Below, piece after piece: positions 85 through 55,675 of a stretch of 64,000 nt of DNA (positions are counted from its first letter, which is position 1; each line of letters begins with the position of its first letter). The position numbers and the translations under genes are program-made. The notes beneath the pieces are model-generated. The model was not told the DNA's origin, made no database searches, and saw only the letters and a program-made list of their open reading frames with translations. This DNA is from Vairimorpha necatrix (taxonomy: Eukaryota). The DNA is taken from NCBI GenBank assembly GCA_036630325.1, contig CP142735.1:62001-126000 (forward strand). Direction: 5' to 3'.

Positions 85-690
85 TTGGGGACAAAAACGC
101 TCCCCTCTGAGAGTGTTCACTTTATAATTTTGAACCCCAAAAACGAAGTGCAAAATAAAGGAGAAGCAATCATTAGTACTCAAATTACTTGCATCTTCAA
201 ACAGTAAAAATACCAAATAAATATATATTTGTATACGAAATTTAATTTAAAAAAAGCTTATAACCATAAAACTATATAATTCTTTATAACTTAACATATT
301 TAAATTAAATTTTTTGATTTAACAATATGTGTAGATCGTTGAACATTTATTTAAATTTTCTTTTATAAATAATATTTATAATTTCAATTGTTGGTTTATT
401 ATTAAAGTAGATTTTCTTCAAAAATCTACTTTCATAATAAACCAACAATTAAAAAAAATTTGACAAAATAAGAAGGGTGAAAAAAGACACAATACTTCAA
501 ATGATTATTATAACTAAATCTAAAATTAATTTTTGTATAAAAGCATATATTTATTTGTTATTTTTAATGTTTAAAGTGATAAGAAATTTTTGTCCCTTTC
601 TTGCTCCTCTTTTTTTTTGCACTTCAATTTTGGGGTTCGAAAAATAAATTGAAGCGCTTCAAAGGGGGGGGTCTAAAGTATCCTTCACCC
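85..690. mobile_element. Non-autonomous Merlin-family remnant (MITE-like)
   Basis: 545-690 is nearly identical to the right TIR of the Merlin at 13348-14618 (ends GTCTAAAGTATCCTTCACCC). ~85-230 resembles a diverged left TIR (GAACCCCAAAAACGAAGTGCAAAA). There is no transposase ORF and no TSD was found, so the left boundary is approximate. Confidence 0.65.
386..450. repeat. 30-bp inverted repeat (hairpin), 5-nt loop
   Basis: AATTGTTGGTTTATTATTAAAGTAGATTTT-cttca-AAAATCTACTTTCATAATAAACCAACAATT, one mismatch. Confidence 0.9.
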
Positions 691-4746: not shown

Positions 4747-7700
4747 TAAAAATGCCATTATTAAAAGACTTTTAATAAATAATATATATTTTAATAAAAA
4801 ACAAGTTATACGGCTTCTTAGCTGTACCAAAATTAATTGTCTACCCAACAATTCACCAAAAGTTAGTAACTTTACTAATAAAAGTAATGGATGTAAACTG
4901 AGATTTAAATCTCATGTCTATATCATGGTAAAAGCTAGAATGCTGAGAACAAGCATTCAAAAGGGGTTGTGTCTAGTTAAAACAATGGCCAACCATATCA
5001 ATGGAGAAGAACTCCGACAACAGTTAGACAGAGTGTCAACGGGATTATCGGACTCTCTTATCTATACCAGAAAGCATCGCAGAAAAGATGCTAACTTCAC
5101 CTTCTGCGTAGTCAGAAGGTCAAGAAAAAAAGAAATTTCTGAAGCCATGGATACACTTGGCCTAGAAATATTAAAAGAAATTCCAACTCGTGATAGGGTG
5201 GAGAATAAAAGAAGATGCAAGTCCATAGAGAAGGCCAAGCTCTATAGTCTTAACATCAACCATTTCTACGGAAAGAAGGAGGACTTGGAAATCCTCCTTA
5301 AAGTAGAAAAGCCAACAGTCTTGTGTCTATAAGAAACTTGGAAGAAATACTTAGGTTCTACGAGACTAGAAAAGTATATGGTGGTGGAGACACCAGCCAT
5401 AGGAAAGAATCGGCCAGGTCTAATGACTCTAGTCAGAAAAGACGGGGCAGTAAGATGTTCCAAAAAGGGGGATGACGACAATATTCTACAAACTGTCGTT
5501 GAATTCAAAACTAACACGGGATGGACAAAGGTCTTAATAATCAATGTTTACGTTCCACAAGAGAGAGAGTTAAAGACCGAAACTCTAAGTAAAGTAATTA
5601 ACCTTCTTAGTATTGAGAAGGATAAAAGAAACTACAAGGAGATTGTAGTGATGGGGGATATGAATACTAGTGATTCTTCCCTCAAAAAGAAGCTTGCTAT
5701 CGCAGGGTTAAGCCCTACAATAAACTATAACAGATTACCAGGGACAAGAATCCTGAGTGATGGACAAGTCTCTAAAAGACGTATTGATACGATATTTAGG
5801 GTCTTAATTCAGGACAACGAGAAAGTAACAATTTCTCGAAGATGGACGGTAAGTGATCATCTCTTGCTGAAGAGAATGATATCTCTTTCTTCTCCAGTGA
5901 GAGAACGGTCATTTGCCTACGTTAGGAAGAAACTTGAGCATCCAGGAATGGAAGCTAAGCTTTCAAGAAAGTTGAATGAAAAAACATCCACACTAGATGA
6001 ACTCTCTAGAGTTTTAAAAGACGTTTGTATATCCTCCAAGATATACAGTAAAGTGGAGACATTCAAAGGACTGCCCATCAGATGGAGACACGTAAATGTC
6101 TTTAAAAGTTTTAGATATGCTACTAAGCGTATGCTAACGAATAGGTCCGTAACGTCTGTGCATAGGTACATGTTACTGAAGGATAAGATTGAGGCAACAA
6201 AGATAAAAGTTCGGAAAGATCGAGCCAAACTTTGGGCCTTCAAGGGCATTAAGTTCTATAAAAGTAACAGATCCAGAGACTTCTTGAAATGGTTGAAAAG
6301 TTCTTCTAACGTCACTGTTAGATAAGACAATGTTTGCTTGAAAGATGTATCAGGCATGGCTCATAACGAGCATAAAAAGAAGTTAGGGATGGCCAATGAC
6401 TTTTAAGCTAATCTAGCTAACTCAATTTCAGACGTTGAAAATGTCTATCAAAAAAATATCGAAAGGGATACTCCAGAGAACATCTATGGAGGAATTATTG
6501 AGAGCCACTAATAACTGTGGCAATAACAAGGCAGCTGGACCGGATGGGATTCAAACCGAGTTATACAAGTACTACTTAAACCTAGTTTAGTAGATAAAAA
6601 GCTACCTCTGTTCCTTGTGAACGAGTTCAACAGAATACTAACAGGAGACAGCCCTCCTGTTAGCTGGAGTGCTGCTGACATGATTTGATTCCATAAAAAA
6701 GGAGATGTGCTAGATCTCAACAACTATAGAGGAATTGCGCTAATTAACACAATAAGCAAAATTTACTTTTAAACAGTAAACGACAGACTTACACAGTTTG
6801 TTGAAGAAAAGAACATTCTTTCTCCTTTTCAAGCCGGATTTAGAGCAGGAGAAGAATGTATGAATCAGATTGCAACCTTGCTGGAGGTGGTTAAAAGAAG
6901 AGAATTTCGAAGTCATCAAACATTTCTATGTTTTATTGACTTTGAAAAAGCTTACGACAATGTTAGCCATGAGCTACTATACAATAAGCTAGAAAGATAT
7001 AGTATTCCAAGATATCTTATAAACACATTGAAAGATATCTATGGAAATACTAAGATGAGAATCCGTATAAACGGAGACACAAGTAGTGGATTTCTCTACA
7101 AAAAAGGTGTGAGACGGGGTGGATCTGTTCTCCTACGCTGTTCAATTTATTCATAAATGATATTTTTGACGGCATAACGGGAGTGAGCGTTCCTCGCTCA
7201 AATATAAGCCTGCCTGGGCTGATGTTCGCAGATGACATCGTAGTTCTAGGCAATACTCTTGCTGATCTGAAACACAAAGTATGTCAAATCAGCAGATGGG
7301 CAGTTGAGAATCGTATGATGATCAACTGTGACAAAAGTGGTATCTTAGTATGGGATGCCAATAATAGATCCGAGTCGGTAGATGTCGCTATCAGGACTGA
7401 CCTTTGAAAAATCGGTGAAGTCGCCGAATACAGGTATTTGGGTGTTCTTATAAAAAAGATCTACTTTAGAAGAACACTTAGTCAGAGATGGAGCCTTCAG
7501 AGGCAAAAAAGCTTTAAAAGTCTTGAAACCAAAGCTTCTAAATAAAGTAATAAATATAGCTTTTAAAGGTATATACATAAAAAATGTGCTATTTCCCTCA
7601 CTAATGTACGGAAGTGAATTATGGGGGATGTCTAGTATAAGGTCTGGTGGGATCAATAGAATCCCAAGAAAAGCGATCCGAATGATATTTCGAACAAAAA

Positions 7701-9149: not shown

Positions 9150-12100
9150 TGTGGACTACTGGTTGCCCAGCAGTCCGAGAAGAGTTAGTTTTACTTAATG
9201 TTTTATTTAACTTCTTCATACCCTTATGGGTATGATTTTCTTTTATGTTTGTGGGAGGGAAAATAAAGTATTTCCCTCCAAAACATAATTGGAGAGAAGA
9301 AGGAGAGTACCTACAGCATGGTATTCTCTGGTCTCCAGGGCAATCTTAGGACCACTGGAGATCTGTCCCTTGACACTCCCCCCTTCCTTATCGGCTCCCA
9401 AGTTTCCTTTTCAAAATCCATTTTTTTTAAATCTTTCTGATTCACCGAGAAAACAACATTATTTGGACTAGTTATTTCATAAGCACCCTTTTTTCCTATC
9501 TTAGTTATAGTGTAAAGTCCTTCAAATTTACTGTCCAGTTTATTTTTTATATTGATTGGAGGTTTTCTCCTCAGTACTATATCCCCTACTTTAAAAGCCT
9601 GTTCTTTCACATTTCCCATTTCTCTTTCCCGTGCTTCTCTCTCTGCTTGAAGCATTATTTCTCGAGTTTGGTTTAATCTTTCAAATATCAGTAGATTAGG
9701 TTCCATGGGTATTATCTCTTGGTTAGTCTGATCCCCTTCTTGTGGCTTACGTCCATACAATAATTCAAATGGTGAAAATCCCGTTTTCTTCCTTGGAGAA
9801 ATACGATAAGCATATAGTGCTAGTTCTAAATATTCGTCCCATTCTTTCCATCTTTCATTAGTTATTTTGGCCAGTTTAGCTACCAGCGATTGATTGGTTC
9901 TTTCAACTGTACCATTACATTGAGGATGGTAAGACGAAGTAAAAGATTTTCGCACATGAAAAATTCTACATAATTCTTTTACTGTAGAGTTCAAAAATTC
10001 GAGTCCCCTATCTGAAAGTAGTTCGTTCGGTGGACCATGTCTGCATATGATCTCTTCAAAAATAAATTTGGCTACTGTTTTGGCTGTTTTATTCTTCACG
10101 GCCTTAGCTTCACACCATCTAGTTATGTAATCGGTAGCTACAATTATATAAATCTTTCCATTTTCTGACTTAGGCAATGGGCCTACTATATCGATACCAA
10201 CTAGAGAAAATGGTTCTTTCAGTTGAATCCTATGATACTCTTTGGGTATTCTTTTAGGATTAAATTTCAGACATACTTGGCAATTTTCTATTTCTTTTCT
10301 TATATCTGCGTAAATACCTTTCCATTGCGCTTTCTGTAGGATTAGCGTGTATGTTGGAAATATACTCCCATGCCCACATTCTTCGTGACACTTTAGAATA
10401 AGTTCTTTTTTTTCTGAAACGGATAGTTCATCAACCTGGTCCTTATTTACTGTATGGACAAATCTGGTCAATCCATCTGCAATAACATTATCTTTTCCTT
10501 TAATATACTCAATTTCGTAAGAGTAATTTTCTAAAGTTAGAATCCATCTCATTAATCTCCCTGTACTCTCTTTAAAACTCAGTAGCCATTTAAGCGCTTG
10601 GTGATCTGTACGGATTATAAATGTATTGGTAAGATATATTCTGAATTGTGTTATGCTCCATATTATAGCAAGACACTCTTTTTCGGTTACTGTATAAATG
10701 ATTTCTGCCGTATTTAATTTCCTTGATATAAAATATACTGGCATTTCTATTCCCTCGTATTCCTGCATTAGTGTTGCTCCTATGTATAAATTAGATGCAT
10801 CTGTATATAAAATAAACTTTCTGTTAAAATCTGGTAGTTTAAGGACTGGAGAGCTCGTGATAATCTCTTTTATTTTGGTTACACTTTGTTTAGCACTTTC
10901 AGAAAACTCAAATTTTCCTTTTTTCAAGCATTCATAAATCGGGGCCATTATATCTGTGTAGTTTTTTATAAATTTCCTAAAGTAATTAATAAATCCGATA
11001 AAAGCCCTAGTTTCTTTGAGAGTCTTCGGAACTTTAAGTCGTAAACATTTGGTTTGTTGTTCTAATGGTATGCTTATTCCATCTTTGTTTATCATATAAC
11101 CTAAGAATTTTACTGAATTTTTAGCAATCTTGCATTTTTTTTGATTGACTTTCAGTTTTAATTTGTCTAATATTTTAAACACTGCTTCCGTGTGTTCTAG
11201 ATGTTCTTTAACCGATCTTGAATATATCATTATATCATCTAGGTATACTTGTACAAATTTATGTAAATGGGGAGATAGTATTGAATTCATTATCTTTTGA
11301 AAAGTAAAGGGCGCATTTACAAGCCCGAATGGCATCCTAACCCACTGAAAAGTCCCTGATCTGCTTCTAAAAGCTGTAAGATATCTATCTTTTTGTCGGA
11401 TTCTTATTTGATGATATCCCGATTCTAAATCTAATACAGTGAATATAGACGCTCCTTGTAGCTCTTCAATAGTTTCTTCTATAAGAGGTATTGGGTAAAT
11501 CATTTTCTTAGTGATTTTGTTCAGTCTCCTATAATCAATGCAAAATCTTAGATCGCCGTCCGGTTTCTTGACTAATACAACTGGGGATGTATAATCTGAA
11601 TCGCTGCTTTCGATAACTCCTTTCTTCAAAAACTCCTGAACTTTTTCTTCTATGATCATATTTTGGTCCGGAGATCTTCTATATTGAATATTTTTTATTT
11701 CAGAGACGTCATTTGTTATTTCTATAGCATGTTCAATGTCTAGACTTGATTGTTGATCTCCATTTAAAAAAATTTCTGAATACTCCGTAATAAGTTTATT
11801 GAACTTTTCCTTTTCAACTTGTAGTAATGTTTCATCTCCGACATCAGTTATAAGTGTTTTATTATTAACTGAAGTTGTTGTACATACTGATTTCGTTATA
11901 ACAGCGCTTTCCATTTTATCAAGCATCTTTAACAAGTTTAGTGAAACGGCATCTCCAATACCTATAATGAGGTCTTCTGGCAAGTTCTCAACTACATAAG
12001 CCTCCACTCTGTTGCTCTTCTTGTTTTTAGGTTTTTTAATCATGAATTCCACCTTTTTTTCTGATCTTACACTTCCTCCTACTCCTTCAATGTTTAGACT

Positions 12101-13153
12101 GACATTTGTTGTTTCTAGGCCCAGGCGTTGGACAGTGTTTTTACTAATCAGGTTTATTTGGGCACCTGTGTCGATTAGTGCGGAAATAATTTCTTTTTCG
12201 GAATATAGTTTAATTCTTGGTCGCATGTCTTTAGTTTTCGATTTATCCACTCTACCTACCTTCAGGAGTAATGCAGTATTTCCTTCTTCTGCCTTCTTTG
12301 TGAAAGTTTTAATCACTTTCTTTTCCTGCAAGGGTGCTTCGTTACGTGGAATTTTGGGCCACTTGGTTTTCTTTTTTAGATAATTATTCATAAAAGTTTC
12401 CTTTTCTTCTACCAGATCTAATAACTCTATCCAGTCCTTGGTGTCTAATATAGATTCCTTCAACGTATCTGGGGAGTTTCTTCCTATCGCAATCTTTGAT
12501 CGGTTAAAGTATTCAGTGCTTTTCTTTGCACAACTCTTGAGGTCGTAAGCGTAACTCATGATATCGCTTTCCTTTGGACCTTGTACGTACAAGTGCATAA
12601 ACTTATCAGTTTTATCTTCGAGTAGTTTTTCTTTTATGTATTTCTTATGAAATTGGGATTTGAATGTATCGAAATCTGTTATCTCCTCACCTTCGAAGGC
12701 CTTATACCATCGCAACGCTTTTCCTTTTAGTTTGGACTTTACGATATCCAGCGTCTTGGCTTGCTCATAGATATCTTCTACTTCTCTAAACTGGGAGAGA
12801 AAGTCTTCGGCTTTACTTAGATCTTCGCCGGTAAATTCTGTCCATCTGTTTTGTAGACTCAGTTTTTTCACATAGGAACAGATTTCATCGATTTCATCTT
12901 TCATATCCTCTTCACCGTTACCACCATTGTGGACTACTGGTTGCCCAGCAGTCCGAGAAGAGTTAGTTTTACTTAATGTTTTATTTAACTTCTTCATACC
13001 CTTATGGGTATGATTTTCTTTTATGTTTGTGGGAGGGAAAATAAAGTATTTCCCTCCAAAACATAATTGGAGAGAAGAAGGAGAGTACCTACAGCATGGT
13101 ATTCTCTGGTCTCCAGGGCAATCTTAGGACCACTGGAGATCTGTCCCTTGACA
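9150..13153 (-). mobile_element. Intact Ty3/Gypsy LTR retrotransposon (family 1), 4,004 bp
   Basis: Two 226-bp LTRs, TG..CA (9150-9375 and 12928-13153), identical by eye. 5-bp TSD TATGC (9145-9149 / 13154-13158). PBS TGGTGGTAACGGTG next to the 5' LTR (resembles a tRNA-Leu 3' end). PPT AAGGAAGGGGGGAG at 9376-9389. Confidence 0.97.
9311..12997 (-). CDS. Single gag-pol polyprotein (capsid, aspartic protease, RT, RNase H, integrase)
   Basis: 1228 aa uninterrupted. Motifs: ALIDTGA; YLDD; YTDAS..EKE..TDH; HHCC (CHEECGH..CQVC); DIVGP..SDRG..NGTVER. PR-RT-RH-INT order is Ty3/Gypsy. No CCHC knuckle is visible in Gag. Confidence 0.96.
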   Translation of the reverse strand: MKKLNKTLSKTNSSRTAGQPVVHNGGNGEEDMKDEIDEICSYVKKLSLQNRWTEFTGEDLSKAEDFLSQFREVEDIYEQAKTLDIVKSKLKGKALRWYKAFEGEEITDFDTFKSQFHKKYIKEKLLEDKTDKFMHLYVQGPKESDIMSYAYDLKSCAKKSTEYFNRSKIAIGRNSPDTLKESILDTKDWIELLDLVEEKETFMNNYLKKKTKWPKIPRNEAPLQEKKVIKTFTKKAEEGNTALLLKVGRVDKSKTKDMRPRIKLYSEKEIISALIDTGAQINLISKNTVQRLGLETTNVSLNIEGVGGSVRSEKKVEFMIKKPKNKKSNRVEAYVVENLPEDLIIGIGDAVSLNLLKMLDKMESAVITKSVCTTTSVNNKTLITDVGDETLLQVEKEKFNKLITEYSEIFLNGDQQSSLDIEHAIEITNDVSEIKNIQYRRSPDQNMIIEEKVQEFLKKGVIESSDSDYTSPVVLVKKPDGDLRFCIDYRRLNKITKKMIYPIPLIEETIEELQGASIFTVLDLESGYHQIRIRQKDRYLTAFRSRSGTFQWVRMPFGLVNAPFTFQKIMNSILSPHLHKFVQVYLDDIMIYSRSVKEHLEHTEAVFKILDKLKLKVNQKKCKIAKNSVKFLGYMINKDGISIPLEQQTKCLRLKVPKTLKETRAFIGFINYFRKFIKNYTDIMAPIYECLKKGKFEFSESAKQSVTKIKEIITSSPVLKLPDFNRKFILYTDASNLYIGATLMQEYEGIEMPVYFISRKLNTAEIIYTVTEKECLAIIWSITQFRIYLTNTFIIRTDHQALKWLLSFKESTGRLMRWILTLENYSYEIEYIKGKDNVIADGLTRFVHTVNKDQVDELSVSEKKELILKCHEECGHGSIFPTYTLILQKAQWKGIYADIRKEIENCQVCLKFNPKRIPKEYHRIQLKEPFSLVGIDIVGPLPKSENGKIYIIVATDYITRWCEAKAVKNKTAKTVAKFIFEEIICRHGPPNELLSDRGLEFLNSTVKELCRIFHVRKSFTSSYHPQCNGTVERTNQSLVAKLAKITNERWKEWDEYLELALYAYRISPRKKTGFSPFELLYGRKPQEGDQTNQEIIPMEPNLLIFERLNQTREIMLQAEREAREREMGNVKEQAFKVGDIVLRRKPPINIKNKLDSKFEGLYTITKIGKKGAYEITSPNNVVFSVNQKDLKKMDFEKETWEPIRKGGVSRDRSPVVLRLPWRPENTML

Positions 13154-26952: not shown

Positions 26953-28065
26953 GGTGCATCTTTAGTAACGTGCCGGAAGGTAACACCCCCCCCCTTACAG
27001 ACAAAAATTTAACAAAATTTTGAAAAAAAATAAGAAAACGATATAAAAATGCTTATTTGATTCAGTAGTTTAGATAAAAGATCAACAAAACCCTTATAGA
27101 AGTCTCCCATATCATCTTCTCGAAGCATAAATTTCCTATACATAAATTCATCGAGCCATGTATCTATCTCCGACCGTTTTACTCCATGTTCTTTGGTCAT
27201 TTCAGACTTAAGTTGAGACCATACGTTCTCAATATTATTTGTATGAATAACATCAGGAGATAAAAAACCTATAGAAAGACTAACAACTTGATAACTTAGA
27301 CATAAATTTTCTGCCACCCCGGAATAACTAGGATGACCATCGCTATGTAAAACCGAACCTACACAAATTCTTCCCTCTAGAGCAGCAGTAAGGCACTCAA
27401 TGGTTCTATTCTCTACCCTCGTAATGTAGAAGTTTGAAGGATTTTGAGCATCTATTATGCCCAAAATCCAAAAGTGTCCCTTATAAAGTCGTCCGAAGAG
27501 GTAGGAGATCTTATTTTACCCCTTCTGCATATAACAGACTCATCTACTTGAACGACTTGCCCGGGTCCTCCGATTATAATTCTATTCTTTAGCAAATCTT
27601 TATAGATCTTTCTGAGGCTGCTTTTTACGGCAGAGATTGTAGCTGTTGAAACGCCCAATCTTGCCATCAACTGAAAGTAAGAATATCTGCATAATATTCC
27701 AAATACAAGGTCACAGAATGTATGAAGAGGAACCTTGCAGCCTTTATTCACAGCCAACCGCGCACTGCATTTGTAGTTCGAACAGCGATATGCTACTCTT
27801 GTAACGATTTCTTCCTTGACAGGACCCAATCTCATGTTACATCCACATTTGGAACATGATTTTTGCTCCTTCAGCACTTCTAAGTCAATTAAAGCTTCTA
27901 AACAAGTGTCAACGTTATAAAAAAGCCTTTGTATATTCACAAGTTTAATTTTTGTGCTTTTCTTTAGTAACGTGCCGGAGTTTTCTAAATCGATGTTGTC
28001 CATTTTAGGGGTAAAAAAATATTTTTTAAAAAAACAAAATCCCGGCACGTTACTAAAGATGCACC
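26953..28065 (-). mobile_element. Merlin DNA transposon (family M3), 1,113 bp, nested in M2
   Basis: 24-bp TIR GGTGCATCTTTAGTAACGTGCCGG. 8-bp TSD AAATAATA (26945-26952 / 28066-28073). Confidence 0.95.
27009..28003 (-). pseudogene. Merlin M3 transposase, frameshift near 27460-27480
   Basis: ATG at 28003 after CCCCTAAA. Motifs: CSKC..YRCSNYKC; IIGGPGQVVQVDES; LHSDGHPSY; HTNNIENVWSQLK. Confidence 0.9.
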
Positions 28066-28279
28066 AAATAATATGTTATAACTGTTTTTTTAAATATTTT
28101 AACTTTTGTAAATTCATATTTTCATAAAAATATTGTTTTAAATATAATTTTAAGGGTTAAAAATATTATTTTATATAAATTTAATTGGTCATTGTAATTT
28201 TTTTAGGGGGTGCGAATTTTTAAGTAGCGCCGCAATGTTTATTTTGAGATATTTGACATGTTGTTCTTTAAATATTTTA

Positions 28280-31200
28280 TGTTAACCATTTATTTATTAA
28301 GGGTTCTAAACCCTACATCCCCCCTCCAGACGGGTAGTCTCTCCATCTTCTAAACAACTCTTCCTTATCTCTTTCAAATCATAATGCCTCTTTTTAACAA
28401 TTTTACCATCCAGTAGTCTCACAATATATGAATCATTTTCACTTATAGCTACGATCCTTCCGCGACCCGTGAATCTTCCCTTGTCTGTTTTCGCACGTGT
28501 ACCTAAATTTTCTCTCCTAGCGATTCTTACCTCTTGGCCTACTGTAAATGTCTCTCTGTGTCTTCTCTTGAACCGACCAGCATATTTTCCATTTTCATCA
28601 TTTTCAATTATAACTTCAGCAGTTTGATCTCTCCACGCTTCCATCGGCGTACATTTTATTGCTGTATGTAGTGTATTATTATATCCTTTGATTGCTCTTT
28701 CTATCTTTTCAGAAATATTCCCATCATTTTGCTTTACCAATGTCTCTCTTATAGTTCTGATGCATCTCTCGATTCTACCATTACTCCTATGAGCTTCTAA
28801 GCCCACTTTCCTATGTTTAATATCATTAATACTACACCATTCTTTAAATCTATTACTTACAAACTCTTTTCCGTTGTCTGTCACATATTCCTCTGGAAAT
28901 CCATCTTCCCTTATCCACTTTTGTAATACCTCTATAACTTCACTACTCTCTTTACATCTCAAATTCGAACCCCACAACCTTCTAGTAAAGTAATCAATAC
29001 CCAGTAACACATACCTATTCTCTCCACCTATGTCCATTAAATCCAACGCCACTTTCTCCAATTTCTTTCTAGTTACTACGAAATCACATCCTCCTGTGTT
29101 TTTCCTATTGTTAATCCCACATATTTCACAATTCTTAATTACCTTATTAATATGATCTTTCATACCAGGCCAATACCATCTTTGTTTAATGTTATAATAA
29201 GTGCCTTTGACACCTCTATGGTTTAACTCCTCATGTACTCTTGTTATTTCATGTTCTCTACTATCTAGGCTCAATATCTCTTTCACCTCACCTGTGGAAA
29301 ATTCCCAATACTGTTTACCGTCCTTTTCTTTAATATGTTTCTGCTTTTTTCCCAAAATTTGTATTTCGATCACTTCTTTTCTCTTGTTGTCCTTTTCTTT
29401 TTGTTCATCCGAAACTTCTACCTGATCATACTGCCTGCTTAACGCATCTGCATCTGTCATCAACTCCCCTTTCACATACTCTATTGTAAAGTCAAACTCT
29501 TGTATCTGTTCTACCCATCTGTTTATTCTGTTATTATTGAAGTATGGCTTATTTCTGATCTCTGCTAATGCTTTATGATCCGTCATCAAATGAAATTTCC
29601 TTCCTCTCAAATCACTTTCAAACTTCTTTATTCCAAAAAACACCGCCAACATCTCCTTCTCACTTATCGTATATCTTCGCTCGGTAGGAGTCAACATTTT
29701 CGATGCCCATTGTATCGGAATCCACTCACCCTCTTTATTTTCTTGTAATAGAATTGCTCCGATCCCCGTATCACACGCATCAGTTCTTACTCTAAATAGC
29801 TTTTTTCCGTCCGGAATCTTCAACTTTTTCATATCTCTCAAGCCTTGCTTCATATCCTCAAAAGCTCTTTCCATATCCTCCGTCCAATTCCACTTAACAT
29901 CTTTCTTTAAAGCCTCAGTAAGCCTTACTGTTCTATACGCATAGTTGGGAATAAAGTCTCTAAACCAACCAGTTAGTCCTAAAAATCTTCTTAATTCTCT
30001 AACATTTTCAGGTTTTCTATATTCCAATGTCTCCTGCTTTTTAATCTCATTCGGTCTCATTCCTCCCCATTAATTGTTACTCCCAGCAACATCACCTCAT
30101 CTTTTTTGTATTGTATCTTTGTTTGGTTTATTCTCAACCCACACTCTTTAAACTTTTTAATTACCCTCTCTAGTAACTCGTCATGCACTCTTACGTCTTT
30201 ACCATGAATAACTATATCATCCATATATACTTCCACGCCTTTACCTCTGAATTCATCTAAAACTCTGTTCATTACTCTCTGCATTATATGAGGCGAATTC
30301 TTAAACCCCATAACCATACTATTCCATTCGTATACTCGACCATTCACTTCAAATGCTGTTTTGTGCTTATGGTGCTCCTCAATCTCAATATGATAAAACC
30401 CTTCTTTTAAGTCGATAACCGTAAATACTTTTGACCCCTGTGTGGCTCTCATAATATCCTTAATTAACGGTAGTGAGTACGGGTCCTTGTCAACCAAATC
30501 GTTTAACGCCATCAAATTGCTTACCAATCTTACGTCCCCATTTGGTTTTTCAAGTGCTCTTATTGGACTCCTCCACTCACTTTTGGAACGTCTTATAACC
30601 CCTCTATTTTCCAACTTATTCAAGTACTCCTCAAATTTCACCCTAAGGTAGTATGGCACATTCTGCCCTCTTTTCACAACCTTTTCACCTTGCTTAGTAT
30701 TTATTGGACACTTCTCTCCTGTGAGATATTTTATCTTTTCTTCTGATTCTTTAAAAACTTCCGGATACTTTTCAATTAAATTTTCTAACTTATTTACTGT
30801 TTTACATCTTTTCCCTTCATTGTTGATAATTGGTTCTTTCTGTAAAACTTGTTCCTTTTTAATTTTATATTTTTCCCTACCAGCTACACTTTCATGACAT
30901 TCTCTAGCGTAATGCCCTTCTTTCTTACATATAAAACATTTTGTAGTTTCTCTGATTTCTCTTCTTTTCCTATACATCCTAAGATTTTCTTTTCTTTCTT
31001 CCCTAAACTCTTTCAACACTTTATCCATAATCTCTTTAATCATTTCTTGTCTTTCTTCTGACTCTCTCTCAAATTCTGCTCCTTTTTGTAAGCCTTTATA
31101 AATTTCCTCCCAACTGCTCCTTCCGTCACAAAAATTTTCAAAAATATAATCCTGCAAGTTCGCAGATGCCAAATCCATAACATCTTTCCACTCAACTTTC

Positions 31201-31353
31201 TCAACTTTCAATATTAACTTTAGTCTCTTATCTATCCTAATTGCCTCTTTCTCTAATGTTCTAGCCTCTTGACTACGGGACTCTCTTGTTTCCCTGTTCA
31301 TCCTTGTGTTCGCCATGTTAACCATTTATTTATTAAGGGTTCTAAACCCTACA
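28280..31353 (-). mobile_element. Miniature Ty3/Gypsy (family 3), 3,074 bp, 38-bp LTRs, no protease
   Basis: Identical direct repeats TGTTAACCATTTATTTATTAAGGGTTCTAAACCCTACA at 28280-28317 and 31316-31353. 5-bp TSD TTTTA (28275-28279 / 31354-31358). PBS TGGCGAAC abuts the 5' LTR and PPT GGAGGGGGGA abuts the 3' LTR. Confidence 0.95.
28306..31325 (-). CDS. gag(CCHC)-RT-RNaseH-integrase polyprotein, single 1-nt frameshift at ~30060
   Basis: ORF 30057-31325 has CFICKKEGHYAREC and YMDD. ORF 28306-30060 has TDAC..EKE..TDH, HEELNH..CEIC and ALDLMD..TDNGKEF..NGRIER. One extra G in GGGGAGGA gives a continuous INGEGMRPNE. Confidence 0.88.
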
Positions 31354-31497
31354 TTTTATAATAAATAAACCCATGTTTTCATCCCAACAATTAGAATCAT
31401 TTGATATGATTTATATACATTTAAAAAAAAATATATCTATATTATTATTCTTACTCGGTTATGTAACCCCTAAATATCTTGCCATGTTTTTGTATAG

Positions 31498-31544
31498 AGA
31501 TCCACCCATAGAAAAGACCGTAGATCTCTTCTATGGGTGGATCT
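31498..31544. repeat. Inverted repeat AGATCCACCCATAGAA / TTCTATGGGTGGATCT
   Basis: 16-bp perfect arms, ~15-nt spacer. A partial copy (GTGGATCTCTTCTA) lies near 31751. Confidence 0.85.
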
Positions 31545-34500
31545 TTTCTATTGATATAAAATATTCGAAATTTCTTCTAAATTTTTAAAAAATTTTTACG
31601 TTCAAAAAAAAATTTAAAGGGTTAGAAAAATTGCCTGGAACATTAGAATTATAAGTATGACTGATCTCGAGTTGCAGATTACTATATTAAATTGAAGGTT
31701 TGTTTTAGGTTCTTTTTTTTAAATTATATTTTTTACTATTTGGCTGCAAAGTGGATCTCTTCTAATAGTTTAAAAATTTCTTTTTTTGTAAATCGTAAAA
31801 TTTGACTTTTTTTTTGGGGGGGGGGGGGCATCTTCTAACCCAGAAAACTGGTACTATTTATGTATTTGCCGTATTATCATCAACATCAATTTTGTCTGTT
31901 CTCACTCATCACTATCAAAAATAAAATTCCCTTACAATTTCTACACTAATTTTCCCTTCCAACTGCAAACTCATATTCTTACCTATTTTTTTTTGCCAGA
32001 ATTATTACTAAAATATAGAGGAAACTTTAGAACTCTCATGAAATGACGGAATACAATTGTAGAAACGAGACGTGTATTAAAAAACTTAACCTTTTTAGTT
32101 CGTAAAAAATGAGACCGTTGATAAAATCATAAATTTATTAAAAGAAGTAATGAGATAAGATTCGATAAAATGAATAAACAGTCAGAGATGTTTTGAGGAG
32201 ATAGGGAGATTGATCGTTTAAAATACAATTTCAGGATTATTTGAAAATTTTAAATTGGGATCATAAAAAGGTGCAAAATTTTAGAAAAAAGCTTTAAAAT
32301 GTATAAGCATGAACAGTATAAATAATTGGGCTAGAATCAATAAATAAATTTAAGCGTTAGTTGTGGAAAGTCTTGTGTTGATACATACACAAAAACTATA
32401 CACAAATATGTTGAATAAAAAAATTGCATGTAAATTTGATCATGAAATTCATGTGAAATTCGACATGTAGGCGCTATGGCATATTATAGCATATCTAGAA
32501 ATCTTAAATATTGGAAACTGTTAACTAAAATAAATAAAATGAAAACTCACATTTAAATATGATTCTGACATTCCGAGATTTCTCGTAGATCCTATCTTTT
32601 TTCTTGCAAGTAGAGTAGTGAGAACTTTTAGATAGGACCACAAAGGTAAGTTGAGAACTTTAACCAACTGGAAACGCGTGATCCTTATTTACGAAAACTC
32701 ACTCCATAAGGATTGTAGTTGTAGCGAGCGTTGCCGTATGCCTTTATATTGCTGGCTTTCGATAAGAATTTCCATCTATAAGACAGATTACTCCTAGAGT
32801 GACCTTAAAGGAGATAACAACCGCATGTTTTGATAACTCGAAGAGAAAATCATTGTACTAGAATAAAGTTCTTTACAATTATTTGCTCTCGAGCACACGG
32901 CCCTTACACAACCACATCATCGGCCTGGCATTTTATTGTTCTGCGATGACATCTAGTCGTTCACCAATTTAGGCTAACGTCTTGTAAATGCTGTGAGATT
33001 GAGTTTGAGTCCTTTTCCCGCTCTTCTTAGCCTAGTTACTAAATTTTGGAGTTAGAAAGAAGTAAAAGATTTATTAGCTACAACTAAGCTGTCTCCATCA
33101 GATATTTTATGTTAGTGTAATTCGCCAGAGTGGACACTGTGTTTTGTCCTTGCGAAGCGCTTATACACTAAATTCTTATCCTTTTATGCTGTAAGCATAC
33201 ATGTTTTATTGATTAAACTAAATCTTATCGTGATACTACTATCATCGACTTGTTTTAACTGCGTTACGAAGGGTAAAACTTTAAGTACTTTGTAGATTTG
33301 TGAGCTCTGCTTCGACAAGAACATAGATAATTATTTAACACCTCTTCTGAAATTTATAGGTGAGAATAATATTACTGCTTATTAAAAGCAAAGAGATCTA
33401 AAATCAGGACTTTAGTTTCAGTCAGCGTAGGAAGCTTAAAGGTCTTAAAAAATACTACGACTTTTAATCAGCGGACAATTTTTTACAAAAAATATTTTTT
33501 TAAAAAAATAAAGCCGATTATAAAGAGGAATGCTGACTAAAATTTGCATTGGTGCGAATTTTACAGCTTATTAAAAAAGGAAATAAAGCGAAAACTCCAA
33601 AAATCCCAAAACTTACTAATTTTTATAAGATGTAAAAATAATAATTATATATGTTCAAAAATATTAAGAAATATTATAAATATGAGTTGAAGGTACCTTC
33701 CGCCAATTTTGTCTTTTTATATAGGTGTAATATGGCTCTTGAAGAAAATGTTTTTAGATCTGATGTGTGTAAGGGCACGGTTCACGGTTGGGCTCATTTT
33801 TACATGAATAATGTTTGTATAGACACATGTTAAATGCCAAGATATTAGGCTATAATTTACAGTTTTTGCTCCTGATTATGCTCTTTAAAGGTTTAAAGAT
33901 CCCATACATATATGAACGAATGACGAATCTAAAATTTATATTTTAATAAGATCAAAACGTTTCATCCTAGCTTATTTTTTTGTAAAGCCAAGCAATCTTT
34001 TTTAATAGTTATTTCCACCAATCAGAACACTTCCCCCCTACTAATTTCAGCCATAAATTCATTTTTTAAATTTTACTTTGTTCATTTTTAAACGATTTAA
34101 TCACCTTCTTCCTGTTCAAGGTTCTTTGAATACCTATCATAAACTTTTAATTTTTCATAATTTTTAAAGTGTATTTTACATTTTGTACGTTACAATCGAA
34201 CATTCCTATAAATAAATATTTAAATCCTAATATCCACAAATTAACAATCTTTCATATATCAAATGATTCATCTTACTTTTTGTAAAGCCAGAATTATTTT
34301 CAATGTAAAATCTGGGCTTGCATTTTGGAAACTTGCATTTAAAATAAGCTGTTTCAAACGACTCTTTAGCTGCATCCAACTACAAAAAGTACAAATCTGT
34401 TTATATTTTTGTGAAATAGGCGTATGTTTTTGATTAATCTTTTCAATAATTAAAATTACTTTCCTTTTTTAAAAATTTTAAACTCTGTTATTTTTTTACA

Positions 34501-51569: not shown

Positions 51570-51977
51570 ATGAGGGATAATTTAGAGGAGAAAAAAATGG
51601 AAAATTATTTTATGCAGAAAATGCGTATTTATATTTTTAGAGGGGAGTTTGTTTGTTTAAACAAACAAAGTGGGAAAAGAAAAAAATATATATAAAAATA
51701 TAAAACTAGTACTAAACATGTATGATTTACACTTCAAGATAAAAAATTATTTATTAGTATATAAAATATAAAACTATATATTTTTCCTAATTTAGTTGCT
51801 ACAAGTATAACCTAGAATGATTTTACAGAAGAAATATCTATTACAATTGATATCTTATAAAAAAGATGTAAATGTTTAAATTGTGTAACATAAAACAAGT
51901 TAAAAGAGATAGTACGGTCCCCTTAATGCACATCATAACGTGTAATTATTGCATATGATAAATCTTTTAGTACAAAT

Positions 51978-54900
51978 TGTTGGAATGAAAACATGGGTTT
52001 ATTTATTATAAAATATTTAAGAAACAACATGTCAAATATATCAAAACACAGACACAATATATTTGACATATGTGGCACTTCCTACACTACCCCTCCTTTA
52101 AAAGCTTTACATGATTTCGGCTTGCCGTAACTGTTTTTCCACTGTCCAATAAAACTTTAAATGAATGAAATTTTTGTTCTGCTACCACTCCTTTTTCTTC
52201 CCATTTAGGTTCAAGTTTTCCTCTTATAGGGAGAATTAAATAGTACCAGACCCTATCTCCAACCTTTATGGTTTCCTTACTCTCACCATTTTTCTTTCCA
52301 CCCGTGTTATACTCAAGTCTGTAGGCTTCTAAATTTTTAATGGCCTGTTCCTGATATTCTTTCTTTTCTTTTGATGTCTTAATCCCTTCCTGTAAGTCCA
52401 ATTTATTAAGCACCATTCCTGTAATAAGTTCTACTGGGGCGCAGCCTATAGCCCTATGGTAAGACTGCATATAGGCCTTGACCAATTTAGGAACGCATTT
52501 TGCCCAATCAAATTTCCCAAATTCCGTAATTTTCCTTAACTTTGAACCCATTGTTCTATTAAATCTCTCCACAAGCCCCGTGGTCGTAGGTTTGTAGAGG
52601 GAACCATATTTCCAGATGAAATTCTTAATCCTTGCATATTCATCACAGATTTTATTTCTGAACTCTTTACCATTATCAGTTAGTATGGCTTTCGGAACTC
52701 CATGTTTCCTGACTATATGTTTATCGATCAAATAAACAACCGTATTCATATCCTTTGTATAAACCGGCACTACCTCTGCGATTTTTGAGAAATGGTCTAT
52801 CATTGTTAATAAAAACTTGTATCCTTGCTCACTCTCTTTCAGAGGGCCTACCATGTCTAACTCCCAGATTTCTCCTAATTTATTTGCTACCACTGGTACA
52901 ATATCTTTAAATTTTCTCTGAGGTTTTTCCTTTTGACAAACTTCACAGTTGTCTACATAGTCTTCTATATCTTTGTTCATATGCTTCCAGGTGTATTTTT
53001 GACCAATATTGTACTTCATGTTTTGTTTTGATCCGTGGCCCAATAAATCATGATAAAACTTTAACAATACCGATGTTCTCTCTTTTTTTATAACTTTCTT
53101 TTGTACTAAATGAATTTCCAAAACATTCTCTCCCTCCTTTTTAAATTCTCTGCTCAGGTGATCTGTATGGTTTGATGGTCCTGTTATATATTCAATATCA
53201 AAGTCATATTCTTGTAAAATCAATGACCATCTAGCCAGCCTAGCTTTGACGTTTCTAGACTTAAATAAATATTTCAGAGCTTGATGATCAGTTTTTAATG
53301 TAAACTTACCTAATAATAAGTATTCTCTGAAATGTTGAATGGATTTTATTACCGCCAATAGTTCTTGTTCCGTCGTGGAGTAATTCTTTTCCGTCTTTGA
53401 GTGCAGGGAGCTGTAATAAGAAACAATCTTTTCTTTTCCTCCAATTACTTGTGCCAAAGTGGCGCCACATCCCTCGTTTGATGCATCTGTTGTCAAAATG
53501 AACTTATCCTTCAAGTTTGGGATAGTCAACAAGGCCGTTCTCTTCATGGCCTGTTTTACCTCTTCAATATCCTTACGATATTTAGCGTTTTGTTCTACAT
53601 TTTTCCAAAAGTTCTCAGCGTCCTCATTCTTGAGCCTGATTATATCAAATAATGGGCTAATTATCTTGTGACTGTTTTTTATAAATTTTGCACAGTAATT
53701 ATACAACCCCAACAATGATTGTAGCTTTTTCTTATTTTTAGGGATTGGTAGCTTCTGAATACTCCTCACTCTCTCTTCATCTACCCTTATTCCTTCCTTT
53801 GATATTACATGACCTAAAATTCTTAACTCGGTCTTCTTAAATTCGCATTTCTCCTGATTAAGTTTCAATCCTACCGATTTGAGCTTTTCCAATACCATTT
53901 GAACATCTCTCCTATGGTCTTCTTCAGTTTTACTATAAATTAGTATATCATCCATATATACTACAACAAACTTAAACAAAAATTCCCTTAATATATCATT
54001 CATCACCCGCTGAAATGTAGCTGGTCCGTTAACAAGCCCAAATGGCATTTTAGTAAATTCGAATAACCCTTCTCTACAGGCAAAAGCTGTCTTCTCAATA
54101 TCACAAGGCGCCATATCTATTTGGTGATAGCCAGATTCAGCGTCTAATTTGGTAAAGTAAGTAGCACCTTCTAATGCGTTTATGAATTCTTCTACACGGG
54201 GCATTGGATATGCATCCCTAATCGTCACGTCATTCAGTCTTCTATAATCCACGCATAGCCTATGGTCTCCATTCTTTTTTGGAACAATAATTATTGGGCT
54301 TCTCCATGAACTTTCACTAGGTCTTATTATCCTAAGCTAAGATATTCTTTTATTATTTTCGATGCTATGTCCTCTTTTGCAGCACCCAACTTGTATAACT
54401 GTGATAATATTGGGTTATCATCCTTCGTGATGATTTTATGGTATCCTATGGCTTTACCCTTTGCCATTTGTCCAGATTCAATTTCCATTCTATTATCCCC
54501 AAATCTTAAACTAATTCTGTATTTATCGAGTAGCCCATGTCCTATGATGCATGGGATTGTGATATCTCTTGTTATAATGAATTTATCCTCAAATATCATC
54601 CCATCAATTTTAATTTTAACTACCGTTTCACCAATAATTTTTATCCTCGAACCATTTGCTGCTCTAAGCTGTTGTTTCGAAATATTAACAACAGTTTTAT
54701 TCGGTAACAGTTCTGGTCTAATAAGATTTAAATCGGCTCCTGTATCAATCAGTACTTTGAATTTTCCTCCTGAATTGCTTAATGACGCAGCTTTAAGTGT
54801 TGTTCTAATGTCCTTAGACTTCGACACGGAATAGTTAAAAATAAACTTATAAGAATCATTTTCCTCATTTTGTTCCTCCTTCTCTGTGGCCTTTTCTACA

Positions 54901-55675
54901 GCTCTAACATTCTTATGGAAGCTATTGAATTTGCATTGTGAAACTATATGGCCCCTTTTCCCGCAAATAAAACACTTAATTTTTCCATTTTTTTCTGTTT
55001 TCTCATTATTGTTCCACCAGACCTTTTCTTTTATCGCATCTACCTCCCTAGATTCTCCTCGAGCCACTTCTGTATATCTTTGGACATTCGCTGACTTCAT
55101 ATTACTCAGAGCTCTGTAAATGTACCTCCACGATAAGGTATCTTTATTATTTACTAGCACCAAATTTGCCAAATCCTTGGGTAGTCCTTTTAACGCAAAG
55201 GCAATTAATATACTCTCCGGGACATTACCTTTGCGTGCTAGTCCCGCCATCTTATCCAAATAATTTAAAATCGAGCCTCCATGGTATACTAACGCCGAAA
55301 GTTTATCAATGCATATTTTTAACTGCATTTTACTAAAAAATCTTTCTTTAAATAATTCAATTAGCTTATCAAATCTAAGTCCTACTGGCAGTGAATTAAT
55401 CCAGTCTCTCGCTTCATCCTTTAGAGACATTTTAAACAGGAGCATCAGTTTCCCCTCGCTGTACTCCAGCAACCTCCCCACCTCTAAAATGTCCTCCACG
55501 AACTGCTGTGGGTCATCATCCTCTTCATTTCTAAATATCAACTCTTTCTTGTCGTTCTCGCCAAATTGTTGGAATGAAAACATGGGTTTATTTATTATAA
55601 AATATTTAAGAAACAACATGTCAAATATATCAAAACACAGACACAATATATTTGACATATGTGGCACTTCCTACA
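51978..55675 (-). mobile_element. Young Ty3/Gypsy (family 2), 3,698 bp
   Basis: 109-bp LTRs at 51978-52086 and 55567-55675, identical by eye. TSD CAAAT (51973-51977 / 55676-55680). PBS TGGCGAG; PPT AAAGGAGGGGTAG. Confidence 0.97.
52087..55583 (-). CDS. gag-pol polyprotein with one 1-nt frameshift at ~54328
   Basis: ATG at 55583 (CCCATG) inside the 5' LTR. Motifs: CFICGKRGHIVSQC, LIDTGA, YMDD, TTDAS, HDLLGH..CEVC, TDNGKEF. GGATAATA lacks one A relative to LGIIRPS in the sister copy. Confidence 0.9.

Follow-up and report, generated by a model that had tools for sequence, protein, structure and literature searches.

A Ty3/gypsy-type element of 3074 bp lies on the minus strand (31353..28280) of the window, the whole stretch of 64,000 nucleotides that was analysed, and it encodes Gag, RT, RNase H and integrase (IN) without any recognizable protease (PR). 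The loss of the protease very probably extends to the entire clade to which the element belongs. The best reading of the sequences would be an old secondary loss in a lineage that is still functional. By descent the element belongs to Ty3/gypsy without having a canonical retropepsin, and because the retropepsin is missing it is a variant rather than a standard member of this group. The relevant features are collected in Table 1.

Table 1. Features of the protease-less element, its insertion site and the proteases of the two other Ty3 families (positions in the window).
Feature	Position	Strand	Details
TSD TAAAA, upstream copy	31354..31358	-	Sequence read; 5 nt flank overlap on intact family-2 LTR copies
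5' LTR	31316..31353	-	38 nt, TG..CA; contains AATAAA and the first in-frame ATG
PBS TGGCGAACACAAGG	31302..31315	-	Abuts the 5' LTR; read from sequence
ORF1	31325..30057	-	422 aa
Mini-Gag helical region	30945..31286	-	aa 14–127, including a 56-residue helix; AlphaFold
CCHC zinc knuckle	30897..30938	-	aa 130–143; Pfam zf-CCHC (aa 129–143), E = 6.7e-4
Linker at the usual place of the protease	30780..30896	-	39 aa, without D[TS]G; low confidence/disordered past a short helix
RT lead-in LIEKYPEVF	30753..30779	-	aa 183–191; consensus in relatives ExLxxKYxxVF
RT core RVT_1	30072..30551	-	aa 259–418, YMDD; Pfam E = 1.3e-31
Frame break in RT thumb	30057..30063	-	ORF1 ends; ORF2 continues in another frame
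RNase H	29494..29805	-	ORF2 aa 86–189; Pfam RT_RNaseH, E = 1.4e-30
Integrase, H2C2 zinc domain (ORF2 aa 268–319) and catalytic core (aa 343–417)	28810..29259	-	
PPT GGAGGGGGGA	28318..28327	-	Coding; abuts the 3' LTR; read from sequence
3' LTR	28280..28317	-	38 nt, identical to the 5' LTR; contains the ORF2 stop codon
TSD TAAAA, downstream copy	28275..28279	-	Sequence read; same flank overlap on family-2 LTRs
Family-2 LTR fragment, left part	28242..28279	+	92% identical to 52046-52009 and 55635-55598
Family-2 LTR fragment, right part	31354..31392	+	97% identical to 52013-51975 and 55602-55564
Family-2 retropepsin, LIDTGA	54507..54770	-	aa 300–387 of ORF 54327..55667; Pfam RVP, E = 1.2e-4
Family-1 retropepsin, LIDTGA	11957..12226	-	aa 258–347 of ORF 9311..12997

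The ends of the element are defined exactly. The two LTRs match without a difference over their full length, for which the repeat search gives a chance expectation of 0, and together with the intact TSD this identity marks the insertion in the window as recent. A preliminary description of this DNA had placed the insertion within an LTR of another Ty3 family (family 2), and the flanks confirm this, as they are contiguous with a 5 nt overlap in the intact family-2 LTR copies at 52046-51975 and 55635-55564. The arrangement of LTRs, TSD, PBS and PPT is that of Ty3/gypsy elements (TG..CA ends, TSD of 4–6 bp). The start codon (ATG-GCG) straddles the junction between the LTR and the PBS, and the 'MA' start of the polyprotein is kept in the alignment consensus of relatives. 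ARAGORN finds no tRNA genes in the 64 kb window, so that no partner for the PBS is provided from there. In the relative L019, GGAGGAGGGGA occupies the place of the PPT and is followed by a similar 38 nt TG..CA terminus; direct repeats of at least 25 nt were not found in the relatives L001, L002, L003 and L020.

RT, RNase H and IN (HHCC and DDE core) follow each other in the order typical of Ty3/gypsy. The RT is of the Ty3/gypsy type, as seen from its RVT_1 match and from the RT tree, where gypsy-type polyproteins surround it, and Y367, D369 and D370 are invariant in the alignment of relatives. Pfam recognizes the IN through Integrase_H2C2 (E = 1.8e-14) and rve (E = 1.7e-10). ORF1 and ORF2 are filled by the Gag, knuckle, RT, RNase H and IN domains, with short spacers in between.

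The Gag part is small. As described previously, about 130 residues precede a CCHC knuckle at residues 130–143, which is picked up as zf-CCHC by Pfam; across the relatives H138 never varies, and the three cysteines C130, C133 and C143 reach a conservation of at least 90%. The roughly 40 residues that had been counted in one frame between the knuckle and LIEKYPEVF correspond to the linker of 39 residues (residues 130–191 equal 30938..30753). In 27 relatives this linker measures 33–111 residues, and in P0034 it measures 172; it is unconserved in both length and sequence, and no common cleavage site is therefore visible. A semi-conserved basic cluster is present 9–17 residues before the RT lead-in in 27 of 39 members, compared with 49% in shuffles.

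The AlphaFold model of residues 1–210 is all-helical with a mean pLDDT of 81.6, rising above 90 over most of residues 20–140. Pfam gives no Retrotrans_gag match to the helical N-terminal part (residues 1–210, up to E ≤ 10). The nearest Atlas clusters are of the Retrotrans_gag+zf-CCHC type (score 0.90, a lead only); at 300–416 residues, the Gag proteins of these clusters are about twice as long as the mini-Gag. BLASTP aligns it to the C-terminal part only of the family-2 Gag (residues 164–266, 30% identity, E = 3e-6), while no similarity to the family-1 Gag is detectable. Foldseek searches of the PDB with the model of residues 1–210 returned no matches at E ≤ 0.001, the weak rows being retroviral nucleocapsid knuckles, and a wide VIA-align search reached a best Z of 5.8 with generic helical proteins throughout (the Arc C-lobe is found at rank 38, Z 4.8). 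No retropepsin is listed among the rows of the fold searches with this model. Prediction of a complex of two Gag chains (residues 1–146) returned a score of 0.00, which is no answer and counts neither way.

The lack of a D(T/S)G motif ahead of the RT had been read directly from the letters, and indeed none is present in residues 1–206 of ORF1. Pfam searches of both ORFs at E ≤ 1 detect no protease family, and at E ≤ 10 none is detected in residues 1–210 or in nine ORFs of 55–116 residues in other frames. A β-rich retropepsin fold of 90–100 residues is not seen, and the room between the knuckle and the RT lead-in amounts to only 39 residues. When the pre-RT regions of the 39 clade members are compared with 21 outgroup proteases using hhalign, a probability of 0.06% is obtained (E = 0.73), as against 98.6% (E = 1.4e-15) for 13 PR-bearing sisters used as a positive control. 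A divergent protease fold in the N-terminal part, which the preliminary description had considered, is thus not found in residues 1–210 by either the helical model or this profile–profile comparison. The two other Ty3 families of the window possess detectable proteases with LIDTGA, as had been stated; that of family 1 is recognized by gag-asp_proteas (E = 2e-7) and RVP (E = 9.7e-6).

The reading frame is broken in the RT thumb, and the window copy itself is therefore slightly damaged. The relatives are continuous across this site in the alignment consensus, and near-identical contigs from the public runs X1 and X2 contain one extra letter behind 30061. A programmed −1 frameshift at 30060 was rejected for these reasons, and the frameshift is private to the window copy. 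Over 29924..31333 the dominant near-identical contig of X1, 1411 nt long, runs colinearly with the window copy apart from four letter differences and one gap. The Gag–RT junction is the same in high-depth contigs of two independent runs, and no insertion within 30750-30940 is listed across four public runs, it being understood that contigs drop rare variants and that rare PR-bearing sister copies would escape notice.

Copies of the element were assessed via public sequencing runs and protein collections. Relatives with the same architecture in a single ORF of about 1000 residues are found in Vairimorpha necatrix, Enteropsectra breve and many further contigs, while the match in Nosema granulosis is 5'-truncated. 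All named members of the clade come from Microsporidia, its taxonomic range resting on these three named species from different genera. Among the first 38 matches listed, which are mostly 950–1040 residues long and include all three species, none carries a precomputed protease family. Rescanning 30 aligned members with Pfam gave weak protease matches in two of them, P0035 and P0038. The D[TS]G tripeptide is absent from 25 of the 30, and in the remaining five a protease HMM match coincides with it only in P0035 and P0038. Matches to Peptidase_A17 occur in three of the 30 (E ≥ 0.047), and in one member that was inspected the match lies over the connection between RT and RNase H. A family-trained, iterated PR HMM matches 129 of 253 retrieved sequences; when it is applied to the window element and P0001–P0038, its matches are again confined to P0035 and P0038, also with the threshold relaxed to E ≤ 10. 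Nine alignments run from Gag to RT in a single stretch without a protease-sized insertion (P0104, P0106, P0107, P0111, P0113, P0165, P0182, P0185 and P0205), in a protein-representative search of which many top matches are long multi-copy fusion proteins.

In the RT tree (96 rows, 239 columns, tips from clustering at ≤50%) the PR-less rows form a single clade of 55 tips, none with PR (UFBoot 98, SH-aLRT 94). These tips comprise 39 assessable PR-less rows and 16 5'-truncated rows that are not scorable for the protease, and the protease is absent in all 39 of the former. The clade has long internal branches, is sister to an eight-row PR-bearing clade (100/98) and is placed inside further PR-bearing lineages. 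Between the window element and L019, pN is 0.15 and pS is 0.82 (saturated) for the RT, and dN is 0.27 and dS is 2.33 for the IN; RT, RNase H and IN are under strong purifying selection, as measured for RT and IN between these two PR-less lineages. Fixation of the loss, the RT phylogeny and selection had all been proposed as checks in the preliminary description, and their outcome is a single PR-less clade with RT and IN under purifying selection.

We propose that the retropepsin gene was lost once, long ago, in a Ty3/gypsy clade that has kept transposing since. The polyprotein is a single chain in which a mini-Gag, made of a helical part and a single CCHC knuckle, is joined through a short unconserved linker to RT, RNase H and IN. 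This polyprotein would not process itself and may work on its own RNA as a single multidomain protein, the knuckle serving as a nucleic-acid chaperone, and cellular proteases would at most clip it at disordered linkers. As a consequence of the lack of self-processing, the step of protease-driven capsid maturation would be gone from the cycle. The small Gag, the 1:1 ratio of Gag to Pol, the 38 bp LTRs and the near-total coding density fit extreme streamlining. The complete proposal of one ancient loss, ongoing transposition and a helper-independent mechanism has about an even chance of being correct. A stronger version, in which this ancient and active clade lacks any proteolytic maturation and an uncleaved mini-Gag–RT–RNase H–IN forms a capsid-light RNP on an RNA with 38 bp LTRs at its ends, is tentative and somewhat more likely to be wrong than right. 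Ty3 needs its protease for maturation, and an uncleaved Gag–Pol would therefore, to our knowledge, be without precedent in this group.

The two readings offered in the preliminary description, a protease-less lineage and a helper-dependent parasite, are supported as a pair and both are still viable. As a semi-autonomous parasite, the element would itself provide a Gag-like protein, RT, RNase H and IN but would obtain the protease, and perhaps a full capsid, in trans from co-resident elements. Such trans-complementation is possible since PR-bearing families 1 and 2 are both present in the window and since family 2, in an LTR of which the element resides, has the same LTR start TGTAGG and the same PBS start TGGCGA, the latter as noticed before. 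The half-sized Gag that aligns only to the C-terminal part of the family-2 Gag also fits this scenario. However, families 1 and 2 are distant and fall in the outgroup (the best matches of the family-2 pol, P0056 and family 1, are 35–37% identical to it), and the mini-Gag lacks detectable similarity to the Gag of family 1. Moreover, the clade is deep and diverse, with 55 tips and at least three named species of different genera, and the linker of 33–172 residues shows no shared cleavage site. Dependence on a helper is thus rather unlikely, and we lean towards an autonomous protease-less lineage, as the clade is deep and diverse and its linker is not conserved.

Self-cleavage could also be performed by a non-retropepsin or unrecognizably divergent protease within the Gag, the linker, the RNase H–IN spacer or the C-terminus of IN. 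The spacer of about 70 residues and the C-terminal region of IN are outside the modelled residues 1–210, and the basic cluster seen in 27 of 39 members might serve as a signal for cleavage or targeting. Such a cryptic protease is nevertheless very improbable: Pfam domains account for both ORFs with short spacers, residues 1–210 are predicted to be helical without a β-rich domain, no protease family of any clan is matched in ORF1 or ORF2 at E ≤ 1 and the marginal Peptidase_A17 matches (E ≥ 0.047) lie, in the one member inspected, on the stretch that links RT to RNase H. Even less credible is a private in-frame deletion or assembly artefact, which would make the window copy a dead relic of a family with normal, protease-containing members. 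With one frameshift in its RT this copy is indeed not pristine, but its LTRs are identical, its TSD is intact and RT and IN are strongly selected between two PR-less lineages. Sister copies containing a protease, which the preliminary description had named as evidence to the contrary, were not encountered, as the X1 contig is colinear and all 39 assessable clade members are PR-less. Together with the same junction in high-depth contigs of two independent runs, this effectively refutes a private deletion or artefact.

No description of a protease-less Ty3/gypsy lineage was found in the searchable open full-text literature. The aspartic protease is regarded as a hallmark of LTR retrotransposons and retroviruses, and maturation of the polyprotein as obligatory. 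Single-ORF elements of the Tf1/sushi type resemble the window element in making Gag and Pol as one protein in a 1:1 ratio, but Tf1 encodes and requires a protease, whereas the window element encodes none. BARE2, which relies on the Gag of BARE1, and LARDs and TRIMs are partly defective LTR elements that are complemented in trans; they too are missing a canonical function and may have co-resident helpers. Here, in contrast, the missing function is the protease, and the clade is old and diverse with selected RT and IN rather than a recent derivative of a helper. DIRS/Ngaro elements, LINEs and the hepadnavirus P protein use a multidomain replication protein uncleaved, which is the working model that we propose for the window element. 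They differ in integration or priming, whereas the window element retains LTRs, PBS, PPT and a DDE integrase.

Among the closest known systems are the microsporidian Ty3/gypsy elements (the Nbr families of Nosema bombycis and three microsporidia-specific groups). They share with the window element the one-polyprotein gag-pol, the RT–RNase H–IN order, an integrase of the HHCC/DDE type, a Gag with CCHC and microsporidia as hosts. The one-polyprotein structure is called unusual in a passage on microsporidian elements (Parisot et al., 2014, PMC4202319), the main text of which contains the word 'protease' 0 times, and for N. bombycis elements a passage of PMC2474625 attributes five domains including a protease to 'nearly all'. 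The window element differs in the absence of the protease throughout its clade, a Gag of about 130 residues, LTRs of 38 bp and a total length of 3074 bp.

A selected and diverse PR-less clade would imply either an unprocessed or host-processed Ty3/gypsy cycle or a long-lived division of labour between lineages. If maturation is indeed absent, the retropepsin would be dispensable despite its hallmark status in reverse-transcribing elements, and these units of ∼3.0–3.1 kb would be the smallest autonomous LTR retrotransposons as far as we know. As a natural minimal LTR retrotransposon of ∼3 kb, the element is attractive for dissecting the essential functions of Gag and LTRs. Its LTRs are far shorter than the usual size. 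LTR-finding programs usually apply a minimum LTR length of about 100 bp, and LTRs of 38 bp thus fall into an annotation blind spot.

The window element encodes its Gag knuckle and reverse transcriptase (RT) with hardly anything in between, and it is coding over almost its whole length. Residues 130–191 of ORF1 correspond to nt 30938..30753, in agreement with the preliminary description, which placed a Gag knuckle nearly fused to the RT at 30750–30940, in one frame and with no D(T/S)G motif between them. No D[TS]G motif is present anywhere upstream of the RT, and Pfam detects no protease (PR) family at E ≤ 1 in ORF1 or ORF2. The LIDTGA retropepsins ascribed to the other two Ty3 families of the window were located at aa 258–347 of ORF 9311..12997 (family 1) and at aa 300–387 of ORF 54327..55667 (family 2), so protease detection works in the sequence context of this genome. 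Family 2 uses separate ORFs for Gag-PR (54327..55667) and pol (52087..54252), and its pol falls in a distant group with P0056 and family 1 as best matches (35–37% identity). A semi-conserved, KRxK-like basic cluster lies 9–17 aa before the RT lead-in (window region 30780–30820) in 27 of 39 clade members versus 49% in shuffles; it might serve in nuclear targeting or mark a cleavage site.

Features of the window element (amino-acid positions refer to ORF1) and of family 2
Feature	Position	Strand	Details
ORF1	31325..30057	minus	422 aa; Gag-CCHC-RT
ORF2	30060..28306	minus	584 aa; RNase H-integrase
zf-CCHC	aa 129–143	minus	Pfam
RT lead-in LIEKYPEVF	begins aa 183	minus	linker from knuckle 39 aa, one frame
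RVT_1	aa 259–418	minus	Pfam
RT_RNaseH, Integrase_H2C2, rve	ORF2	minus	Pfam
Predicted helices (AlphaFold, aa 1–210)	14–38, 46–52, 55–65, 72–127, 147–162		knuckle precedes the last helix
LTR pair flanks	both sides of element		TAAAA; 5-bp TSD
PBS	directly after 38-nt 5' LTR		TGGCGAACACAAGG
PPT	directly before 38-nt 3' LTR copy		GGAGGGGGGA
Family 2 element	51975–55673	minus	compact, PR-bearing, ~3.7 kb

The element is bounded by a 38-nt TG..CA sequence that occurs exactly twice (31353..31316 and 28317..28280; 0 matches expected by chance). Its interrupted flanks (28242–28279 and 31354–31392) were compared with two uninterrupted family 2 LTR copies in the window, 52046–51975 and 55635–55564, in which they are contiguous with a 5-nt overlap. 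The inserted unit is therefore exactly 3074 bp plus the 5-bp TSD, and the element landed in a family 2 LTR fragment, as had been proposed. Family 2 LTRs are ∼107 nt long and start with TGTAGG, and the family 2 PBS starts with TGGCGAGAACGAC. The first ATG of the window element lies inside the 5' LTR, which also holds AATAAA and a CCC motif, while a second ATG-GCG straddles the LTR/PBS junction and corresponds to the conserved 'MA' start of the relatives. The PPT is coding and the stop codon lies within the 3' LTR. At 38 nt, the LTR leaves little room for U3, R and U5. The DNA contig L019, which encodes the closest relative P0001, ends in GGAGGAGGGGA, after which comes a 38-nt TG..CA sequence (L019 2726–2763) resembling the window LTR, and 13 Logan contigs of relatives exceed their ∼1000-aa ORFs by just 29–100 nt; so small an excess would fit terminal repeats that are very short throughout the clade.

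A divergent protease hidden in the N-terminal region, or an in-frame deletion private to this copy, would each account for the missing domain. For ORF1 aa 1–210, Pfam at E ≤ 10 returned zinc-knuckle and chance-level matches only, and none of nine other-frame ORFs (55–116 aa) gave a match at this threshold. A PR HMM built from five proteases that Pfam had located, with two rounds of iteration on all sequences retrieved, matches 129 of 253 sequences; over the window element and P0001–P0038 its sole matches at E ≤ 10 are P0035 and P0038. Comparing a profile of the pre-RT sequence from 39 clade members with one of 21 outgroup proteases gave a probability of 0.06% (E 0.73, 16 columns); the positive control, in which 13 PR-bearing sister lineages took the place of the clade members, gave 98.6% (E 1.4e-15, 101 columns). 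The AlphaFold model of aa 1–210 (24-row alignment, mean pLDDT 81.6) is all-helical and contains no beta-rich domain, its confidence falls between the last helix and the RT lead-in, and fold searches with it returned no significant match and listed no retropepsin. A private deletion fares no better. In contigs of four public sequencing runs compared over window 27800–31800, no insertion was found within 30750–30940, although contigs can hide rare variants. We consider a cryptic protease and a private deletion each highly improbable.

The same contigs clarify the frame break between ORF1 and ORF2. Relative to ORF1, the offset of ORF2 is 3×421+2 nt, so one added letter joins both in one frame. 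Exactly such a letter, at the site of the break, is present behind 30061 in runs X1 (60.6 of 60.6) and X2 (61 of 61), and the frameshift is therefore private to the window copy or its assembly. The 1411-nt X1 contig is colinear across 29924..31333 with four other letters and one gap, the gap being this extra letter; the contig's depth is 60.6, compared with 32.3 in a contig of unique flanking sequence.

A search for longer proteins gave 102 matches among 4391 candidates. The first 38 are mostly 950–1040-aa single-ORF polyproteins whose precomputed Pfam domains comprise RVT_1, RNase H, H2C2 and rve, joined by zf-CCHC in some; a precomputed protease family is listed for none of the 38. Named matches come from Enteropsectra breve (P0020), Nosema granulosis (P0022) and Vairimorpha necatrix (P0028, P0033), all Microsporidia, of different genera. 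Among 30 aligned members, a Pfam rescan (E ≤ 1) produced weak protease matches in the two most distant rows, P0035 and P0038; the linker of the other 28 is unconserved and 33–111 aa long (172 aa and of low complexity in P0034). D[TS]G is absent before the RT in 25 of the 30, and three of the five occurrences (P0007, P0023, P0037) are at sites without a PR HMM match. A full-library search retrieved 473 proteins at E ≤ 1e-30, among which nine partial sequences give a single unbroken alignment across Gag and RT that has no insertion the size of a protease. In P0013 (L001 89–2581 / L002 1131–3623) part of a different element's RNase H reads in frame into the protein's own Gag, as would be expected had this member inserted into another retrotransposon. 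L019 and L020 encode clade members yet sit in bins titled bacterial MAGs (Clostridium sp., Turicibacter sp.), which looks like binning contamination.

For the RT tree, 95 of 251 sequences with an RT match were kept (single RT domain, ≥90% of the profile covered, ≤1700 aa; 156 dropped) and family 1 was added, giving 96 rows. Rows were labelled PR (PR HMM match upstream of the RT), noPR (none with ≥150 aa upstream) or short5 (<150 aa upstream, PR status not assessable). In a careful IQ-TREE run on 239 columns, 39 noPR rows around the window element and 16 short5 rows form one 55-tip clade with 0 PR rows (UFBoot 98 / SH-aLRT 94); all 39 of its assessable members lack a PR match. Its sister is an eight-row PR-bearing clade (joint support 100/98). 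Next outward follow P0035, the P0040 group and P0184/P0170, all PR-bearing, and outermost is a 24-row outgroup including family 1, with 21 PR rows. The whole tree requires three PR/noPR changes, at the base of the 55-tip clade and, within the outgroup, at P0070 and at P0046. The latter two have just 153 and 172 aa upstream of the RT, and P0046 clusters with PR-bearing P0045 and P0047 (309 aa upstream); both are therefore probably truncated. If the presumed root lies outside the clade, the pattern reads as a single secondary PR loss. The nearest relatives of ORF2 are the same clade members as for ORF1, which rules out a chimera.

Selection was assessed against L019 (76% identity over RT columns). 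For the RT, pN is 0.15 versus a saturated pS of 0.82, and for RT-thumb/RNase H the values are 0.12 versus 0.80; dN and dS are 0.27 versus 2.33 for the integrase and 0.61 versus 1.63 for the linker. These values indicate that the enzymatic domains have been under strong purifying selection since the split of these two PR-less lineages.

Its place in the RT tree, the order of its domains, its type of integrase and its LTRs, PBS, PPT and TSD all mark the window element as a Ty3/gypsy derivative. One canonical feature, the retropepsin, is lacking, and its capsid domain is putative. Parisot et al. (2014; PMC4202319) treat microsporidia-specific Ty3/gypsy groups with one polyprotein in a main text that never uses the word 'protease'. 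A passage in PMC2474625, citing Xu et al. (2006), assigns five domains including the protease to 'nearly all' N. bombycis elements, and a partial earlier mention is possible. No description of a PR-less Ty3/gypsy clade was found in the open literature searched. Such a variant is of real interest to retroelement biology.

An element-encoded protease is absent from a lineage that remains under selection, and lineage-wide loss is very probable. The preliminary interpretation, a PR-less autonomous lineage or a helper-dependent element, is upheld as an either-or. The polyprotein probably functions without self-processing, and the chances that it acts independently of a helper are about even. The mini-Gag spans ∼143 aa to the knuckle end versus 300–416 aa in the nearest Gag clusters, and aligns solely with family 2 Gag aa 164–266, downstream of the family 2 Retrotrans_gag domain. 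Being so small and so aligned, it may not form a full shell and could be mainly an RNA-binding and oligomerizing module, which would abolish the need for protease-driven maturation. Uncleaved multidomain replication proteins have natural precedents in LINE ORF2p, DIRS and hepadnavirus P protein, and RT–IN fusions exist within Ty3/retroviral systems. Alternatively, cellular proteases might clip the linker, which is poorly conserved and predicted with low confidence. The main rival, use of a helper's protease in trans, could draw on the PR-bearing elements of the window; these are, however, only remotely related to the element, and the junctions show no conserved motif. We regard this rival as rather unlikely and prefer helper-independent function.

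Elsewhere in the window, two adjoining Cys-rich ORFs of 151 and 197 aa (27009–28048, minus strand) lie directly downstream of the element, and its AT-rich upstream flank holds ∼13 C followed by ∼9 A on the minus strand (∼31805–31830). Three successive ORFs (535, 223 and 315 aa) at 3139–6325 on the plus strand may represent a degraded non-LTR retrotransposon, since the last weakly matches Exo_endo_phos_2 (E 0.0047).
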